A stretch of 4,017 nucleotides of DNA from a virus (taxonomy: Duplodnaviria > Heunggongvirae > Uroviricota > Caudoviricetes), in the IMG/VR virus record IMGVR_UViG_2695420427_000018. One strand, written 5' to 3'. Positions within the stretch are counted from its first letter, which is position 1, and every line of letters starts with the position of its first letter. The position numbers and the translations under genes were made by a program. Positions 1 to 4,017 of this stretch are shown piece by piece. Below the pieces are notes generated by a model that was not told the DNA's origin, did no database searches, and saw nothing but the letters and a program-made list of their open reading frames with translations.

Positions 1-34
1 CTCCAATGACTAGTCTAAAAACTAGTATTAAGAC

Positions 35-54
35 TATCACTTATTTAAGTGATA
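35..54. promoter_or_regulatory. Perfect inverted repeat TATCACTT-ATTT-AAGTGATA (8-bp arms, 4-bp spacer); candidate distal operator
   Basis: Read directly: 35-42 tatcactt is the reverse complement of 47-54 aagtgata. It shares the TATCAC half-site with the palindrome at 847-861 next to the repressor start. The functional role is inferred. Confidence 0.35.
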
Positions 55-293
55 CTGGTTGTCTGGAGATTCAGGGGGCCAGTCTAGTTGCCAAGATCGA
101 TAGTATTCATGTTGACCCCATTTCCCCTTAACGCCGGGTGGCGGAACGTTTTATCTACTGCGCTTTGTATCAATCAACAACTGCCGTCATGTTCGTATGC
201 CTCAGGCTGGCTACTTAGCCCTGTTCAGTGACTGGATAACTCGAGGTATTGTCCTGCCGTTCTCTGGTGGGGCGTTGTTTGGATATGCTTATT

Positions 294-332
294 AAACACA
301 ATTTGTTTTCTTGTGTCAACACGCAATGTGTT
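294..332. repeat. Cluster of short inverted repeats of the ACACAA/TTGTGT type downstream of the repressor terminator
   Basis: Read directly: acacaa 296-301 pairs with ttgtgt 311-316, and aacac 318-322 pairs with gtgtt 328-332. The same motif family recurs at 869-880 and 893-907 in the divergent promoter region. Confidence 0.3.
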
Positions 333-360
333 TTATGGTGAGTGTCATATGATGATGCTA

Positions 361-385
361 CAAAAAAGCCCGCTGATAGCGGGCT
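361..385 (-). terminator. Rho-independent terminator for the repressor gene
   Basis: GC stem gcccgc 368-373 / gcgggc 379-384 with loop tgata. On the minus-strand transcript the hairpin is followed by a run of six U (plus-strand A run 362-367). It lies about 30 nt downstream of the repressor stop at 416-418. Confidence 0.7.
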
Positions 386-415
386 GATTGGCATATTACT
401 GTGATAGCAAGATCA

Positions 416-835
416 TTATTCCGGTGGGGGATTATCTTTAATCCTGCCTCTCAAATATTTTTCTACATACTCATCGATTTCTTTTAGCCGGACTTCAAAT
501 AGCTCAATCATTCGTTGTTGTTCTGAGCCCGGTAGCTGGTTAAACAACTCAAGAAGTTTTCGTTGGGATTCATTTAACCACAATTCAGAAGATTCCTGTT
601 CTCCAAAGAGGAGCTCAGGAGGAGATATGCCAAGTGCCTTTCCCAATACGACAGCGTCATGTACTCCAACATTTCTGCTGCCCGCCTCATAGTTACCTAT
701 ACGCGATTGCGTCCATCCGCAGATTTCAGCAAGTTTTCCTTGAGATAAACCAAGCTTCTGCCTGCGCTCTTTAAGACGCATTGCAATTTTGTCATTGAGC
801 CTACTAGCGGCAATTTTTTCGTTTTCTTTTTCCAT
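416..835 (-). CDS. racR: Prophage repressor, XRE/cI-type HTH (RacR-like), 139 aa, no peptidase domain
   Basis: Intact 139-aa ORF. The N-terminus has a helix-turn-helix with LGLSQGKLAEICGWTQSRIGNYEAG. AAGGA sits 5 nt upstream of the ATG on the minus strand. It is divergent from a Cro-like gene, the classic cI position. The symbol is by synteny and recall of the Rac prophage; my recalled K-12 length differs, so this may be a related allele. Confidence 0.88.
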   Translation of the reverse strand: MEKENEKIAASRLNDKIAMRLKERRQKLGLSQGKLAEICGWTQSRIGNYEAGSRNVGVHDAVVLGKALGISPPELLFGEQESSELWLNESQRKLLELFNQLPGSEQQRMIELFEVRLKEIDEYVEKYLRGRIKDNPPPE

Positions 836-846
836 TGCATCCTTGT

Positions 847-861
847 ATCACGAATCGTGAT
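847..861. promoter_or_regulatory. Operator candidate: perfect palindrome ATCACGA-A-TCGTGAT
   Basis: Read directly: 7-bp arms 847-853 and 855-861 are reverse complements. It sits immediately upstream of the repressor RBS and start codon, and shares the TATCAC half-site with the site at 35-54. Confidence 0.5.
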
Positions 862-892
862 TTACATAAAACACAAAACAGCTTGGCTATAT

Positions 893-907
893 AACACAAG
901 GTGTGTT
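893..907. promoter_or_regulatory. Operator candidate: palindrome AACACA-AGG-TGTGTT
   Basis: Read directly: 6-bp arms 893-898 and 902-907 are reverse complements. It lies between the putative -35 and the RBS of the Cro-like gene. Confidence 0.4.
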
Positions 908-931
908 TAAAATTGTCATCGGAGGTTTTCA

Positions 932-1174
932 ATGAACAAAATTTCAACATATCGAAAACAGCTTGGGCTGTCTCAAAGACAACTTGCTGTTCAGTTAGGG
1001 TGGATACAAAGCCGACTGGCAAATTACGAAGCAAATTTTCGTACCCCTGGACTAGAGGAGTGCAGAAAAATTGTTTCTACCCTTAATCGGCTTGGCGCTC
1101 ATTGTGGACTTGACGATGTATTCCCCCCAGACGGTAAGCATAGCGAAAACAGCATAGGAGCGGTTGATTCATGA
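932..1174 (+). CDS. ydaS: Cro-like HTH DNA-binding protein (YdaS family), 80 aa
   Basis: GGAGG RBS 921-925 with a 6-nt spacer to ATG 932. The HTH segment LGLSQRQLAVQLGWIQSRLANYEAN has a recognition helix nearly identical to the divergent repressor. An upstream in-frame stop at 908-910 excludes a longer N-terminus. The symbol is by synteny and recall; my recalled K-12 length differs. Confidence 0.85.
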   Translation: MNKISTYRKQLGLSQRQLAVQLGWIQSRLANYEANFRTPGLEECRKIVSTLNRLGAHCGLDDVFPPDGKHSENSIGAVDS

Positions 1175-1593
1175 AAATCAGGCATGAGCACATCGAATCA
1201 GTGTTGTTAGCCCTGGCAGCCGAAAAAGGGCAGGCGTGGGTCGCTAACGCAATTACTGAAGAATATCTGCGCCAGGGGGGCGGCGAATTGCCCCTTGTAC
1301 CAGGCAAGGACTGGAACAATCAGCAGAATATCTATCACCGTTGGTTGAAAGGTGAAACGAAAGCGCAAAGGGAAAAAATTCAGAAACTGATCCCTGCGGT
1401 TCTGGCAATTCTTCCGCGCGAGCTGCGTCACCGACTCTGCATCTTCGATACCCTGGAACGCCGTGCATTACTGGCGGCGCAGGAAGCGTTGAGTACGGCA
1501 ATTGATGCGCATGATGATGCAGTCCAGGCCGTTTACCGGAAAGCGCATTTCAGCGGCGGCGGGTCTTCCGACGATTCTGTCATTGTTCATTAA
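1171..1593 (+). CDS. ydaT: YdaT-family protein (CII-like regulator / putative growth inhibitor), 140 aa
   Basis: 140-aa ORF with AGGAG at 1156-1160 upstream. Its start overlaps the ydaS stop by ATGA (1171-1174), suggesting translational coupling. The sequence closely matches what I recall of Rac prophage YdaT (MKI.HEHIESVL.ALAAEKGQAWVANAITEEYLRQGGGELPLVPGKDWNNQQNIYHRWLKGETKAQREKIQKLIPA). Confidence 0.9.
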   Translation: MKIRHEHIESVLLALAAEKGQAWVANAITEEYLRQGGGELPLVPGKDWNNQQNIYHRWLKGETKAQREKIQKLIPAVLAILPRELRHRLCIFDTLERRALLAAQEALSTAIDAHDDAVQAVYRKAHFSGGGSSDDSVIVH

Positions 1594-1605
1594 GCAAAAG
1601 TTTCC

Positions 1606-2805
1606 ATGCTGTTTGTGCTTATTCTAAGCAACCGGGCAGCATCATACGGGGCAATTATGGCCGCATTACCATACATGCAACTGTACATAGCTGATTACCT
1701 GGCTGACACCATGCATTTGTCAGCAGAGGAGCACGGCGCGTATTTGTTGCTGATGTTCAATTACTGGCAAACAGGAAAGCCAATACCCAAAAACAGGTTG
1801 GCAAAAATTGCCCGTCTGACTAACGAGCGATGGGTTGATGTTGAACCATCCTTGCGGGAGTTTTTTTGTGATAACGGCGACGAATGGATGCATCTTCGGA
1901 TTGAGGAAGATCTGGCATCTGTCAGAGAAAAATTAACCAAAAAATCAGCCGCAGGAAAAGCATCTGTTCAGGCCAGAAGAAGCAGAAAGGAAGCAGATGT
2001 TCAAACAAAACAAGAGAGAAATTTAACAGGTGTTCAAACAGATGTTGGAGTGATGTTCGAACATGATGCCAACACAAAGGCAACTAATAAAGATACAGAT
2101 AAAGATCTAAAAACAGATCTAACCCATCCCAAACCCTTCCCTTCCGGAAGGGAGTTTCGGGATTTTGTGGCTGGAGTGCTTGAGGGGAGATTATCTGGCG
2201 GTACTGCAGCGGAATTTTGTAATTCTGCGGTGGTTGCGTTGCAGGCTGCTGGCCTGGATGTCTGTCGTGAGTATCCGGTGCCAGAGCGTGGTGACGGTTG
2301 CGGAGGGCGGATTGATATCGTCGTGACTGACAGGAACGGTGTCCGGTGTGGGAGCGAGCTTGACCGAAATTCTCCGCGACAGAAATCACTGCTCAAAATC
2401 GGTGCTGTTGAAACCGGGATATGTGTCTTGCGGCGCAGTGATATCGCAAGGCACACCGAGCAGGGAATTCTGGTTATCGGTGGGGCTGTTCGCCAGAAAA
2501 AATTTGACCCGTTGTCAGTTGATCTGCCCGACTGGTTGCCAGAAACACTCTGGCATGAGTGGGTCCAGTTCAGGCAGGCATTGCGAAAACCGATTCGAAC
2601 GGAGCAGGGCGCTAACGGGGCGATACGGGAACTGGAAAAATTCCGTCAGCAGGGTTTTACACCTGAGCAGGTGATTCGACACAGCATCGCCAATGAATAC
2701 CAGGGTCTGTTCGCGCCGAAAGGTGTTCGGCCTGAGACGTTGCTCCGACAGGTTAACACCGTCTCGTTGCCGGACAGTGCGATCCCGCCAGGCTTCAGGG
2801 GGTAA
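1606..2805 (+). CDS. ydaU: Replication initiation/primosome-like protein: DUF1376-type N-terminus, low-complexity linker, ~115-aa central insertion, DnaT-like C-terminus (YdaU-like)
   Basis: Long ORF in operon position before a DnaC-like gene. The N-terminal motif LPYMQLYIADYLADTMHLSAEEHGAYLLLMFNYWQTGKPIPKNRLAKIA is YdaU/DUF1376-like. The C-terminus ...LLRQVNTVSLPDSAIPPGFRG resembles the C-terminal tail of E. coli DnaT as I recall it. The true start is probably ATG 1657 (GGGG at 1647-1650, protein starting MAALPYMQLY) rather than 1606, which has a poor RBS and a hydrophobic junk-like leader. The stop at 2803-2805 is firm. Confidence 0.85.
   Translation: MLFVLILSNRAASYGAIMAALPYMQLYIADYLADTMHLSAEEHGAYLLLMFNYWQTGKPIPKNRLAKIARLTNERWVDVEPSLREFFCDNGDEWMHLRIEEDLASVREKLTKKSAAGKASVQARRSRKEADVQTKQERNLTGVQTDVGVMFEHDANTKATNKDTDKDLKTDLTHPKPFPSGREFRDFVAGVLEGRLSGGTAAEFCNSAVVALQAAGLDVCREYPVPERGDGCGGRIDIVVTDRNGVRCGSELDRNSPRQKSLLKIGAVETGICVLRRSDIARHTEQGILVIGGAVRQKKFDPLSVDLPDWLPETLWHEWVQFRQALRKPIRTEQGANGAIRELEKFRQQGFTPEQVIRHSIANEYQGLFAPKGVRPETLLRQVNTVSLPDSAIPPGFRG
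1996..2063. repeat. Iteron-like direct repeats GrTGTTCrAACA (3 copies plus one partial) inside the linker-coding region; candidate replication origin element
   Basis: Read directly: GATGTTCAAACA 1996-2007, GGTGTTCAAACA 2029-2040, GATGTTCGAACA 2052-2063 (which contains the 10-bp perfect palindrome tgttcgaaca at 2054-2063), and partial gatgttgg 2041-2048. They are followed by an AT-rich tract 2070-2125 with two AGATCT palindromes (2103-2108 and 2115-2120). The origin role is inferred by analogy to lambda ori lying inside gene O. Confidence 0.35.
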
Positions 2806-2811
2806 CAGACC

Positions 2812-3558
2812 ATGAAAAATATTGCGACAGGAGGCGTTCTGGAGCGTATCCGCAGACTGACCCCACCACATGTAACCGCCCCATTCAGAACGGTTGCGGA
2901 GTGGCGCGAGTGGCAACTTGCTGAAGGCCAGAAACGTTGCGAGGAGATCAACCGCCTGAATCGTCAGTTGCGGGTGGAAAAAATCCTGAACCGCTCCGGC
3001 ATCCAGCCGTTGCACCGGAAGTGTTCGTTTGCGAATTACCGGGCGCAGAACGACGGTCAGCGACATGCACTGAGTCAGGCGAAATCCATAGCTGACGAAC
3101 TGATGACAGGCTGTACGAATTTTGTGTTCAGCGGTAAGCCCGGCACCGGAAAAAATCATCTTGCAGACGCGATTGGCAACCGGCTGATGGCGAAGGGGCG
3201 TAGCGTGATTATCGTCACCGTGTCCGATGTCATGAGCGTGTTGCATGAGAGCTACGACAACGGCAAATCCGGTGAAAAATTTTTACAGGAGCTTTGTGGT
3301 GTTGACCTGCTGGTCCTGGATGAAATTGGCATGCAGCGGGATACGAAAAACGAGCAGGTGGTACTGAACCAGATTGTTGATCGCCGGACGGCATCGTTAC
3401 GCGGTGTGGGGATGCTGACAAATATTAACCATGCAGCGATGAATACACTTCTCGGCGAGCGGGTGATGGATCGCATGGTCATGAACGGCGGGCGCTGGGT
3501 GAATTTTAACTGGGAGAGCTGGCGTCCGAATGTTAGCCATTCGAGGGTTGTTAAGTAG
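2812..3558 (+). CDS. ydaV: DnaC-family AAA+ helicase loader (prophage paralog), 248 aa
   Basis: Walker A FSGKPGTGKNHLADAIG (Asn in the P-loop as in E. coli DnaC), Walker B DLLVLDEIG, and DnaC-like segments NRSGIQPLHRKCSFANY, LNQIVDRR, GMLTNIN and LLGERVMDRM. The start at 2812 is 7 nt after the ydaU-like stop. Confidence 0.92.
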   Translation: MKNIATGGVLERIRRLTPPHVTAPFRTVAEWREWQLAEGQKRCEEINRLNRQLRVEKILNRSGIQPLHRKCSFANYRAQNDGQRHALSQAKSIADELMTGCTNFVFSGKPGTGKNHLADAIGNRLMAKGRSVIIVTVSDVMSVLHESYDNGKSGEKFLQELCGVDLLVLDEIGMQRDTKNEQVVLNQIVDRRTASLRGVGMLTNINHAAMNTLLGERVMDRMVMNGGRWVNFNWESWRPNVSHSRVVK

Positions 3559-3572
3559 TTTCAGGAGGATTT

Positions 3573-3989
3573 ATGGCGAAACCTTTTACTCCCGAACAGC
3601 GGGAAGAACTGAAGACGCGAATTGTGGAACTCGTGCATCAGGACGGTCGGGTCACGATTCGGCAGTTGTCAGATGAAACAGGTATCAGTCGTGCGTCTGT
3701 CGGTCGCTTATGCATGGAACTGGTCGCAAGTGGTGATGTATATAATTCTGGCTACGGGGTATTTCCCTCTGAACAGGCTCATAAAGACTGGCAAAACGCC
3801 CGCAAAAAGCTATCGAGGGTAAAGGTGAAGAAACCGGTTGTGGTTGATCCTGACCTTATCTGGTCATTACCAGACGGAGAAATACGCCGCTACGACAGGC
3901 GCCTGAATATAATCTGTCGCGAGTGCCGGAAGAGCGAAGCTATGAGGTGTACTGGCAATAGCGGACACTACCATTTGTTCTTTTTTTAA
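3573..3989 (+). CDS. Small winged-helix (DeoR/MarR-like HTH) protein with C-terminal Cys/His cluster, 138 aa; function unknown
   Basis: Strong RBS AGGAGG 3563-3568 with a 4-nt spacer to ATG 3573. The N-terminus ELKTRIVELVHQDGRVTIRQLSDETGISRASVGRLCMELVASGDV looks like a winged-helix HTH. The C-terminus CRECRKSEAMRCTGNSGHYH has a C-x2-C-x7-C-x6-H-x-H arrangement. The ORF ends in LFFF at a T-run (3978-3987), so the C-terminus may be non-native. It may correspond to the ydaW position of Rac but I cannot confirm. Confidence 0.65.
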   Translation: MAKPFTPEQREELKTRIVELVHQDGRVTIRQLSDETGISRASVGRLCMELVASGDVYNSGYGVFPSEQAHKDWQNARKKLSRVKVKKPVVVDPDLIWSLPDGEIRRYDRRLNIICRECRKSEAMRCTGNSGHYHLFFF

Positions 3990-4017
3990 GCAGCCATCTG
4001 ATGATATTTTTCCCTGA

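Follow-up and report, generated by a model that had tools for sequence, protein, structure and literature searches.

A probable lambda-style immunity region in a Rac-type Escherichia coli prophage remnant, with an exchanged repressor/Cro cassette next to ydaT

A repressor gene standing divergent from a Cro-like gene and ydaT raises the question of how far such a locus can be equated with racR-ydaS-ydaT of the Escherichia coli K-12 Rac prophage, and whether it should be read as a phage switch or as a toxin module. We analysed a stretch of viral DNA of 4,017 nucleotides (the window) that contains such a locus.

Gene content and setting of the locus

Three open reading frames were found at 416-835 (-), 932-1174 (+) and 1171-1593 (+), exactly where a preliminary description had placed them. 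Its proposal of a repressor divergent from a Cro-like and CII-like pair was borne out, with matches to Pfam HTH_3 for the first two products and to PF06254 for the third. A 96-bp intergenic region separates the divergent repressor and Cro-like genes. The same three ORFs are annotated by RefSeq in a 99.5% identical E. coli prophage. Because positions 87-3944 match annotated prophage DNA throughout, and because a palindromic motif is repeated in the non-coding flanks of the repressor gene, a chance ORF pattern is excluded. The genes and ends of the window are:

1-86: left end of IS2, with the transposase body left of the window (100% match, 20,770 places in 4678 E. coli genomes)
87-110 (-): first 8 codons of a DUF1391 (ydaF-like) gene cut by IS2; first gene of the leftward early operon
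123-274: leader of the leftward operon; last K-12 Rac homology left of the cassette (76% identity, blastn)
367-385 (-): intrinsic terminator 3' of the repressor gene (8-bp stem, 6 GC pairs, then TTTTTT)
416-835 (-): repressor, 139 aa, N-terminal XRE-type HTH and DicA-like helical C-terminal part (Pfam HTH_3, 4.6e-13)
932-1174 (+): Cro-like regulator, 80 aa, XRE-type HTH (HTH_3, 6.7e-10)
1171-1593 (+): ydaT, CII analogue, 140 aa; its ATG overlaps the cro stop codon (ATGA)
1606-2805 (+): ydaU, DUF1376, replication initiator or primosomal-like (95% / 89% identity to K-12 YdaU either side of an insert)
2119-2496 (+): 126-aa in-frame insert within ydaU (phrog_1347 match)
2812-3558 (+): ydaV, DnaC-like helicase loader (83% identity to K-12 YdaV; NF009043, 503.8 bits, above cut-off)
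3573-3942 (+): DUF977 gene, 3' end replaced by an IS end (PF06163, 4.7e-30; the prophage match stops at 3944)
3943-4017: end of an IS600-family (IS3 family) element, annotated 'IS3-like element IS600 family transposase'

On the 3' side of ydaT, the replication genes ydaU and ydaV and then the DUF977 gene follow in the order of the K-12 Rac prophage. The insert distinguishes the YdaU of the window from that of K-12 Rac and, searched alone, gave no Pfam family even at E = 10. The 99.5% identical copy sits in a prophage integrated at ttcA, with intR/xisR; ttcA is also where Rac resides in K-12. At the left end, the same 86 nt immediately precede an 'IS3-like element IS2 family transposase' in NZ_AP018488, the prophage match begins at 87, right after the IS2 end, and the DUF1391 CDS of the 99.5% identical prophage (11869-12024, -) corresponds to window positions -45 to 110. 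At the right end, 5885 places match positions 3950-4017 with 95-100% identity. Rfam, searched with the entire window, gave nothing above threshold; a weak Trp_leader match at 360-446 was rejected as reflecting the terminator hairpin. PADLOC, run on six proteins, returned generic HTH/regulator and ATPase matches only and no defence system. We read the locus as an ordinary lambda-style lysis/lysogeny switch of a Rac-type E. coli prophage remnant.

The repressor/Cro cassette and its boundaries

The preliminary description had called the locus an allelic variant of racR-ydaS-ydaT and had proposed a BLASTP comparison with the K-12 proteins. This comparison upheld the claim for ydaT only: YdaT is 97% identical to its K-12 counterpart, the repressor has no detectable similarity to RacR (E = 2.1), and the Cro-like protein gave no alignment with YdaS. 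Pfam assigned the Cro-like protein to generic HTH families only, whereas K-12 YdaS matches PF15943 (P22_Cro) at 107.7 bits. Of the supposed 'ydaS-ydaT pair', ydaT therefore stands (136 of 140 residues, PF06254) and ydaS, lacking a PF15943 match, does not. Since the repressor shows no detectable similarity to RacR, and the Cro-like protein none to YdaS and only generic HTH families, the window has no 'ydaS' and does not hold a racR-ydaS allele.

The repressor is related to K-12 DicA of the cryptic Qin prophage (29% identity over 129 aa, that is full length including a C-terminal LLELFNxLPxSEQ segment; E = 2e-15). This relationship appears to be distant; the score against the NCBIfam DicA model (NF007257) was 57.3 bits, under the cut-off of 101. 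Neither DicA nor the repressor of the window has an autocleavage domain; for the 139-aa repressor Pfam returned HTH families only and no S24 peptidase domain. Induction, if it still occurs, would therefore proceed via an antirepressor or repressor dilution and not via RecA-stimulated self-cleavage. Qin and the window also share a DUF1391 gene after the repressor on the leftward side; they differ in that the Cro of the window is not DicC-like (no alignment with DicC) and that ydaT, ydaU and ydaV stand downstream rather than ydfX/ydfW. The HTH of the Cro-like protein is a paralogue of its own repressor's HTH (45% identity over 42 aa, E = 2e-10), outside the YdaS and DicC families; the nearest solved structure is 28tn, a 'lambda repressor-like protein' (E = 8e-15).

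A blastn comparison with K-12 Rac delimited the segment that differs:

275-1164: exchanged immunity cassette, comprising OL, terminator, repressor, OR and cro (gap in the blastn alignment to K-12 Rac)

Homology extends over 123-274, is absent from 275-1164 and resumes at 1165. DNA identity thus falls from 76% to nothing at 274/275, and rises from nothing to 96% across 1164/1165. Boundaries as sharp as these point to cassette exchange rather than divergence: a different immunity cassette (275-1164) has recombined next to the ydaT module, the K-12 YdaT being kept and repressor and Cro swapped. K-12 Rac and the window share gene order, prophage family and a YdaT-box over the ydaT start, with YdaT at 97%, YdaU at 89-95% and YdaV at 83% identity. 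They differ in the sequence-unrelated repressor and Cro, in the operators, in the 22-nt gap that precedes ydaT in K-12 where the cro stop overlaps the ydaT start in the window, and in the K-12 promoter PracR4, which lies inside ydaS and has no homologue in the window.

Of 5426 complete E. coli genomes, 162 carry the cassette, in every case on the chromosome; Rac-type ydaT is found in 1513 genomes and the K-12 racR-ydaS cassette in 1089. Among IMG/VR loci, the same ydaT stands after different repressors, and at least three different upstream cassettes are linked to Rac-type ydaT. Given these differing genome counts and the different repressors, YdaT has no fixed partner. Genes annotated 'toxin YdaT' are thus not tied to YdaS or RacR, which corrects an assumption made at the level of annotation, and ydaT is best described as the conserved first gene of a replication-side module joined to interchangeable repressor/Cro cassettes. 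Findings on RacR and YdaS from K-12 are not transferable to the approximately 3% of E. coli genomes with this cassette, of which a literature search found no description.

Candidate operators and promoters, and the YdaT-box

The motif AWCAC-N5-GTGWT flanks the repressor gene on both sides, with a 23-bp spacing in both sets. Against an expectation of 0.02, three exact copies were found, each of them outside coding sequence and beside the repressor gene, and a fourth copy carries one mismatch. The candidate control sites are:

291-319 (-): candidate leftward early promoter (PL analogue), TTGACA, 17 bp, TTTAAT; top score in 100-1250, heuristic scan
295-309: candidate operator OL2, AACACAATTTGTTTT; one mismatch; within the PL spacer, overlapping the -10
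318-332: candidate operator OL1, AACACGCAATGTGTT; exact motif match, touching the PL -35
847-861: repressor-proximal candidate operator (OR3-like position), ATCACGAATCGTGAT; exact motif match
870-884: middle candidate operator, only the left half-site good (AACAC); read from sequence, 23 bp from each neighbour
883-913 (+): candidate rightward early promoter (PR analogue), heuristic scan; -35 TTGGCT at 883-888
893-907: cro-proximal candidate operator (OR1-like position), AACACAAGGTGTGTT; exact motif match, between PR -35 and -10
1151-1156 (-): speculative -10 (TATGCT) of a YdaT-dependent leftward promoter (PRE analogue); low-scoring heuristic hit
1164-1181: YdaT-box, TTGATTCATGAAAATCAG (TTGATT-CATGAA-AATCAG), over the ydaT start codon; one mismatch to TTGATT-N6-AATCAA

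This layout resembles that of lambda, 434 and P22, in which a divergent repressor and cro share a tripartite operator and a second set lies at the leftward promoter. Two predicted full sites and one half-site occupy the 96-bp region between the divergent genes, and the sites at 295-309 and 318-332 would form the second set, overlapping the TTGACA-17-TTTAAT candidate. As in these phages, a CII-type activator follows cro and is itself followed by replication genes (ydaT, PHROG 163; ydaU; ydaV), and as in 434, the HTH domains of repressor and Cro are homologous (434 repressor match, E = 6.5e-4). In contrast to these phages, the repressor of the window is devoid of an S24 autocleavage domain, the operators, palindromic over 15 bp, share the core CAC-N5-GTG, and the CII analogue belongs to another fold family, that of a POU-like HTH tetramer (PMC9986795).

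Conservation supports the operator assignment. In 33 distinct related intergenic regions none of the 25 half-site positions varied, as compared to 34 of the 71 others (Fisher p = 3.6e-6); the half-sites were defined on the window itself, and the samples are non-independent because the related sequences are close relatives. The central spacer positions varied at 6 of 10. Half-sites of the site at 847-861 were invariant in the 33 regions, as was the AACAC of the middle operator among relatives; at 893-907 the half-sites were invariant while 4 of the 5 N5 positions varied. OL1 likewise has conserved half-sites and a varying N5 spacer among relatives, and OL2 has a left half-site invariant in groups A and B of the related loci and a variable right half.

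Groups A and B encode repressors with identical HTH and have the same operator half-sites. The repressors of the diverged group C (60-64% identity) carry the recognition helix SGSSR instead of TQSR and adjoin operators CTCAC-N5-GTGAG at the same positions. The window type thus combines TQSR with AACAC-N5-GTGTT, and the pPE4/group C type SGSSR with CTCAC-N5-GTGAG; in the diverged group, the half-sites change along with the recognition helix. The site at 847-861 retains its left half ATCAC in group C and has GTGAA as right half, and the repressor-proximal operator is the best conserved one across groups A, B and C (ATCAC-N5-GTGAW).

On both sides, operators sit in the spacer that separates the -35 from the -10 in the best promoter candidates. 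These candidates were assigned by heuristic score and conservation; a stricter built-in consensus scan called neither PL nor PR (2 sites versus 2.8 expected in shuffled sequence). In 41 distinct related sequences, the PL -35 (+ strand TGTCAAC) never varies. For PR, the -10 may be TAAAAT at 908-913 (19-bp spacer) or TTTAAA at 906-911 (17-bp spacer), so that the candidate requires either a 19-bp spacer or a -10 without the -11 A; as for its -35, TTGACC is the form in 49 related loci, TTGACT that in 4 and TTGGCT that in 5 (window included). No maintenance promoter for the repressor gene could be assigned from the consensus scan, the heuristic scan and conservation.

YdaT of the window matches Pfam YdaT_toxin (PF06254) at 44.4 bits versus a cut-off of 21, is called a 'CII-like transcriptional activator' by PHROG 163, and distantly matches the solved CP-933P YdaT (8bt1). 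Residues H56 and R57 of K-12 YdaT, which are needed for DNA binding (PMC11879457), are kept (...IYHRWLK... unchanged). The K-12 YdaT-box, ATGATTCATGAAAATCAA, has been footprinted (PMC11879457). In the window, the mosaic junction abuts the left edge of the box, and in those representative related loci that were checked, Rac-type ydaT comes with a YdaT-box. K-12 YdaT also binds in the intergenic region, where the window has only 3-mismatch matches to the box, at chance level.

The YdaT-dependent promoter of K-12 is PracR4. As it lies inside ydaS, which is absent here, we infer YdaT-dependent repressor synthesis for this cassette rather than carry it over. The weak PracR4-like reverse candidates are TATGCT at 1156-1151 by the box and TTGAGA-19-TATGTT at 976-946. 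The TATGCT hexamer stands 7 nt from the YdaT-box, an arrangement reminiscent of lambda PRE; at the corresponding position K-12 lacks a hexamer resembling a -10.

In CP-933P of E. coli O157:H7, PaaR2-YdaS-YdaT has been shown experimentally to be a CI/Cro/CII-like bistable switch, with TTGATT-N6-AATCAA at the ydaS/ydaT junction as the binding site of its YdaT homologue; the perfect half-site there equals the left half of the box in the window. Identity between the YdaT proteins of CP-933P and Rac is only about 30%, PaaR2 and CP-933P YdaS are likened here by description, and the window lacks the ParE2 toxin-antitoxin pair found in the CP-933P repressor operon.

Proposed regulation of the locus and alternative readings

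We consider it highly probable that the locus represents the lysis/lysogeny (immunity) region of a lambdoid prophage remnant of the Rac type, made of two modules joined at position 1164. The first (275-1164) would be a self-contained repressor/Cro cassette. Its DicA-like repressor, presumably a dimer, would bind the 15-bp operators AWCAC-N5-GTGWT, three of them, spaced by 23 bp, in the divergent intergenic region and two more downstream of the repressor gene, and would thereby shut both the rightward (cro-ydaT-ydaU-ydaV) and the leftward promoter. The 80-aa Cro would bind the same set of sites, most likely with a preference for the repressor-proximal one, turning the repressor gene off. The second module would start with the YdaT-box and ydaT; YdaT, as a tetrameric CII analogue, would bind the box and promote transcription running leftward to the repressor gene. 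Its K-12 counterpart (97% identity) has been shown to activate the host gene rcsA and cause filamentation on over-production, and the YdaT of the window might do likewise. The roles of the homologues have precedent in experimental work of 2021-2025, in which YdaS and YdaT homologues emerged as transcription factors analogous to Cro and CII, and in which the toxicity of K-12 YdaT accompanied the activation of rcsA (PMC8630535, PMC9986795, PMC11879457). In the light of these papers, the debate between toxin pair and Cro/CII analogues to which the preliminary description had referred is largely out of date. The present comparative data, taken alone, back the published view that YdaS and YdaT are Cro/CII analogues and not a toxin pair. 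Growth inhibition may be carried over from K-12 by inference, and for YdaT only.

Broken up by IS elements, the prophage could be a dead fossil whose switch regulates nothing of consequence in this genome. The leftward operon is interrupted by IS2 after 8 codons, the DUF977 gene has lost its 3' end to an IS600-family element, and the PR -35 TTGGCT departs from the TTGACC form of 49 relatives. However, none of the five complete ORFs lying between the two IS ends is disrupted, and each differs from its relatives by a few residues at most; the operator half-sites and YdaT-box are all intact, and an intact repressor beside an intact ydaT is what would be expected if derepression were still harmful. 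We thus regard a dead switch as rather doubtful, although it may be partly disabled in this genome by the IS2 insertion and the altered PR -35. The fossil reading concerns present-day activity and is compatible with the mechanism proposed for the module.

It is very improbable that the locus constitutes a toxin-antitoxin or 'toxin-repressor' module, in which the Cro-like protein and YdaT would solely inhibit growth and be silenced by the repressor. The family is still named 'toxin YdaT' in Pfam and RefSeq, and the expression of K-12 ydaS and ydaT is reported to be toxic (PMC5700377, PMC5700373). Against this stand the lack of a fixed co-inherited partner (1513 versus 1089 versus 162 genomes, and different repressors), the surrounding prophage replication and recombination genes, and the fact that 0 of 6 proteins match a toxin or defence-system effector model. 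Moreover, published work has described YdaT homologues as DNA-binding tetramers that activate a leftward promoter and CP-933P YdaT as not toxic, and argues, for YdaS/YdaT homologues, against type II neutralisation by direct antitoxin binding.

Finally, a diverged racR-ydaS-ydaT allele, homologous throughout and open to direct transfer of the K-12 RacR/YdaS results, has gene order, Rac-type prophage position and the near identity of ydaT, ydaU and ydaV in its favour, but is scarcely credible, being already refuted at the sequence level by the repressor and Cro comparisons, by the Pfam families (PF15943/P22_Cro for YdaS versus HTH_3-type only for the Cro of the window) and by the sharp breaks in DNA identity.

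The immunity-region model opens no new kind of biology; its operator part (half-sites, spacing and recognition-helix covariation) provides a ready design for binding and immunity tests. Cro is 100% identical between the window-type and the pPE4/group C repressor/operator sets. One Cro might thus serve two sets of different specificity by recognising mainly the repressor-proximal site, which would uncouple Cro from immunity specificity; we judge this unlikely. If true, Cro from one prophage could stop a heteroimmune relative from making its repressor, and Rac-type prophages resident in the same cell might thereby cross-induce one another.

Gene order and relation to K-12 Rac

The locus is a lambdoid immunity region of the standard kind, made up of two modules. 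As the preliminary description had it, a repressor gene diverges from Cro-like and CII-like genes at 416-1593; RefSeq annotated the same ORFs, concordantly, in an E. coli FDAARGOS_944 prophage 99.6% identical to the window at 87-3944 (blastn; 99.5% at 87-3956 by megablast). This prophage carries intR and xisR and adjoins ttcA, where Rac is integrated in K-12.

Features of the window
1-86, IS2 left end
87-110, truncated DUF1391 (ydaF-like) gene, 24 nt remaining, then a non-coding stretch
416-835, minus strand, HTH gene (repressor), 139 aa; 96-bp intergenic region to the next gene
932-1174, HTH gene (Cro-like), 80 aa
1171-1593, YdaT-family gene, 140 aa
1606-2805, ydaU
2812-3558, ydaV
from 3573, DUF977 gene
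about 3943-4017, IS600-family (IS3 family) end

The description of this region as an allelic variant of the K-12 Rac racR-ydaS-ydaT module held for ydaT and for the repressor/Cro-like/CII-like layout. YdaT shares 136 of 140 residues with K-12 YdaT, whereas in protein comparisons the repressor showed no similarity to RacR (E=2.1) and the Cro-like protein gave no alignment with YdaS. In Pfam, K-12 YdaS matched PF15943 (107.7 bits) and P22_Cro, and the Cro-like protein HTH_3-type families only. YdaV is 83% identical to its K-12 counterpart, and the parts of YdaU that flank an insert are 95% and 89% identical. At the DNA level (blastn), homology to K-12 Rac covered 123-274 (76%), 1165-2119 (96%) and 2497-3533 (84%), with no K-12 Rac match in the stretches between these segments. 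Because this homology is absent from 275-1164, that interval is an exchanged immunity cassette; together with the lack of RacR and YdaS protein similarity, the gap rules out an allele of racR-ydaS. The cro stop and ydaT start codons overlap at 1171-1174 (ATGA), which implies translational coupling, whereas 22 nt separate ydaS and ydaT in K-12 Rac.

IS2 interrupts the DUF1391 gene after 8 codons and so separates the leftward early operon from its promoter and operators; kil and recE belong to this operon in Rac-type relatives that are intact (K-12 Rac, strain N1420). At the other end, the last DUF977 codons are replaced by the IS600-family end (3943-4017). The fragment is thus bounded by two different IS elements, suggesting an IS-rich host. 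With both the leftward operon and the DUF977 gene cut, the module is a remnant, albeit one with intact ORFs, operators and YdaT-box (the published YdaT binding site, TTGATT-N6-AATCAA).

Repressor, operators and candidate promoters

The repressor aligned over its full length to DicA of the Qin prophage (29% identity, E=2e-15), including a conserved C-terminal LLELFNxLPxSEQ segment, but scored below the curated DicA-family cut-off (57.3 vs 101 bits); it has no S24 peptidase domain. The Cro-like protein, unrelated to DicC when compared with it, resembled the HTH of its own repressor (45% identity across 42 residues, E=2e-10), and the two probable recognition helices are almost alike (GWTQSRIGNYEAG in the repressor, GWIQSRLANYEAN in Cro). 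Among solved structures, the one nearest to Cro was PDB 28tn, a 'lambda repressor-like protein' (E=8e-15; about 43% identity, counted by hand from the alignment).

The motif AWCAC-N5-GTGWT occurred in three exact copies in the window (0.02 expected), all in non-coding DNA beside the repressor gene, with a constant start-to-start spacing of 23 bp across the sites (847, 870, 893; 295, 318).

Operator sites
295-309, one-mismatch copy (OL2)
318-332, exact copy (OL1)
847-861, exact copy
870-874, good half-site
893-907, exact copy

We fetched 80 related IMG/VR loci and grouped them by repressor identity.

Related loci, with identities to the window's proteins
Group A: repressor 97-100%; Cro 99-100% in most loci; Rac-type YdaT downstream in most loci
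Group B: repressor 82-84%; Cro 75-78%; a different gene downstream
Group C: repressor 60-64%; Cro 100% in five loci, all with Rac-type YdaT downstream, and 62-85% in three
Group D: repressor about 30%; DicC-type Cro; DicA/DicC pairs

When 33 distinct intergenic regions from groups A and B were compared, all 25 half-site positions were invariant, against variation at 34 of the 71 other positions (Fisher p=3.6e-6, for sequences akin to one another and sites defined on the window itself), 6 of the 10 central spacer positions among them; this conservation is supportive rather than decisive evidence for operators. Covariation offers stronger support: the repressor HTH is the same in groups A and B, as are the half-sites, and group C repressors, with an altered recognition helix (CGWSGSSRIANYEAG), have CTCAC-N5-GTGAG at matching positions. 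The repressor-proximal operator (ATCAC..GTGAW) was the best conserved across groups. The window's Cro recurs at 100% identity beside the 60-64% identical repressor (PP818812.1, 4360-4709; L062-L066); one identical Cro with two repressor/operator specificities is the sole feature that might merit experiment.

The top promoter-like site within 100-1250 was leftward, TTGACA-17-TTTAAT (minus strand, 319 to 291), with a -35 unchanged in 41 distinct relatives; OL2 occupies its spacer and OL1 abuts its -35. The rightward candidate mirrors this geometry: its -35 (883-888) is followed by the operator at 893-907 and a -10 of either TAAAAT (908-913, 19-bp spacer) or TTTAAA (906-911, 17-bp spacer). At that -35, 49 related loci have TTGACC, 4 have TTGACT (the FDAARGOS_944 copy among them) and 5 have TTGGCT, the window being one of these. 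The window lineage therefore has a substitution away from consensus, possibly a down-mutation affecting the rightward promoter. A stricter consensus scan called neither candidate, and no maintenance promoter could be placed for the repressor gene, which is followed by a clean intrinsic terminator (385-367).

The ydaT module and growth inhibition

K-12 YdaT was footprinted on ATGATTCATGAAAATCAA, overlapping the ydaT start codon; this box is required for 29-fold activation of the leftward promoter PracR4, inside ydaS about 190 bp off, which increases racR expression (PMC11879457). The window's box is TTGATTCATGAAAATCAG (1164-1181), its left half a perfect CP-933P half-site (PMC9986795). Since K-12 homology starts at 1165, the recombination junction abuts the box. 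In representative loci the box accompanied Rac-type ydaT and was missing where another gene follows cro. Because ydaS has been replaced, PracR4 has no homologue in the window. Two weak candidates for a YdaT-dependent leftward promoter, neither statistically outstanding, were seen: a -10-like TATGCT (1156-1151), a hexamer that K-12 Rac lacks at that place, spaced 7 nt from the box so that the box would lie over the -35 as in lambda PRE; and TTGAGA-19-TATGTT (976-946), 188 bp from the box.

The locus had further been described as growth-inhibitory when derepressed. This can be inferred for YdaT only, not for the Cro-like protein. YdaT matches its K-12 counterpart at 97% identity and has kept H56/R57, residues required for DNA binding (PMC11879457); the toxic effect of K-12 YdaT goes along with rcsA activation. 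The joining of ydaT to unrelated partners argues against a cognate toxin pair, and the comparisons agree with published experiments that treat YdaS/YdaT-type proteins as Cro/CII analogues (PMC5917428, PMC8630535, PMC9986795, PMC11879457). The locus is an uncharacterised example of a well-known type.

Distribution and the ydaU insert

Rac-type ydaT was found in 1513 of 5426 complete E. coli genomes (1662 places), the K-12 racR-ydaS cassette in 1089 and the window's cassette in 162, where it is chromosomal in every case and mostly single-copy; subtraction leaves some 400 ydaT copies tied to neither cassette at megablast sensitivity. In one IMG/VR contig (L009, 1043-2404), window-type cro and ydaT are separated by an additional, partial DicA-like fragment together with a DicC-like gene (74% identity). 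Repressor relatives (43-65% identity) occurred in Citrobacter, Raoultella, Enterobacter and Phytobacter. The window's cassette was absent from every record of the phage collection; the closest, 'Actinobacillus phage vB_Apl-pPE4' (PP818812.1), combines a group C repressor with an identical Cro and a YdaT of Rac type, which over its first 70 residues departs from the window protein at just a few positions. The early region of this record encodes exonuclease VIII, Kil, the DicA-like repressor, Cro and YdaT, a set typical of E. coli Rac-type prophages. The Actinobacillus host assignment looks doubtful.

The YdaU insert relative to K-12 (126 aa, in-frame, 2119-2496, 56% GC) had no Pfam family and a sole match to phrog_1347 (unknown function). 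It recurs at 99-100% identity in the FDAARGOS_944 locus, L006-L011, L062 and L064; RefSeq annotates the FDAARGOS_944 ydaU as two 'partial' YdaU pseudogenes, yet the ORF is continuous. Just ahead of the insert, at 1996-2063, ydaU contains three iteron-like 12-mers (GATGTTCAAACA, GGTGTTCAAACA, GATGTTCGAACA), with 6 matches in the window at <=2 mismatches against 0.5 expected; an origin of replication may lie within this initiator gene, by analogy with lambda O.
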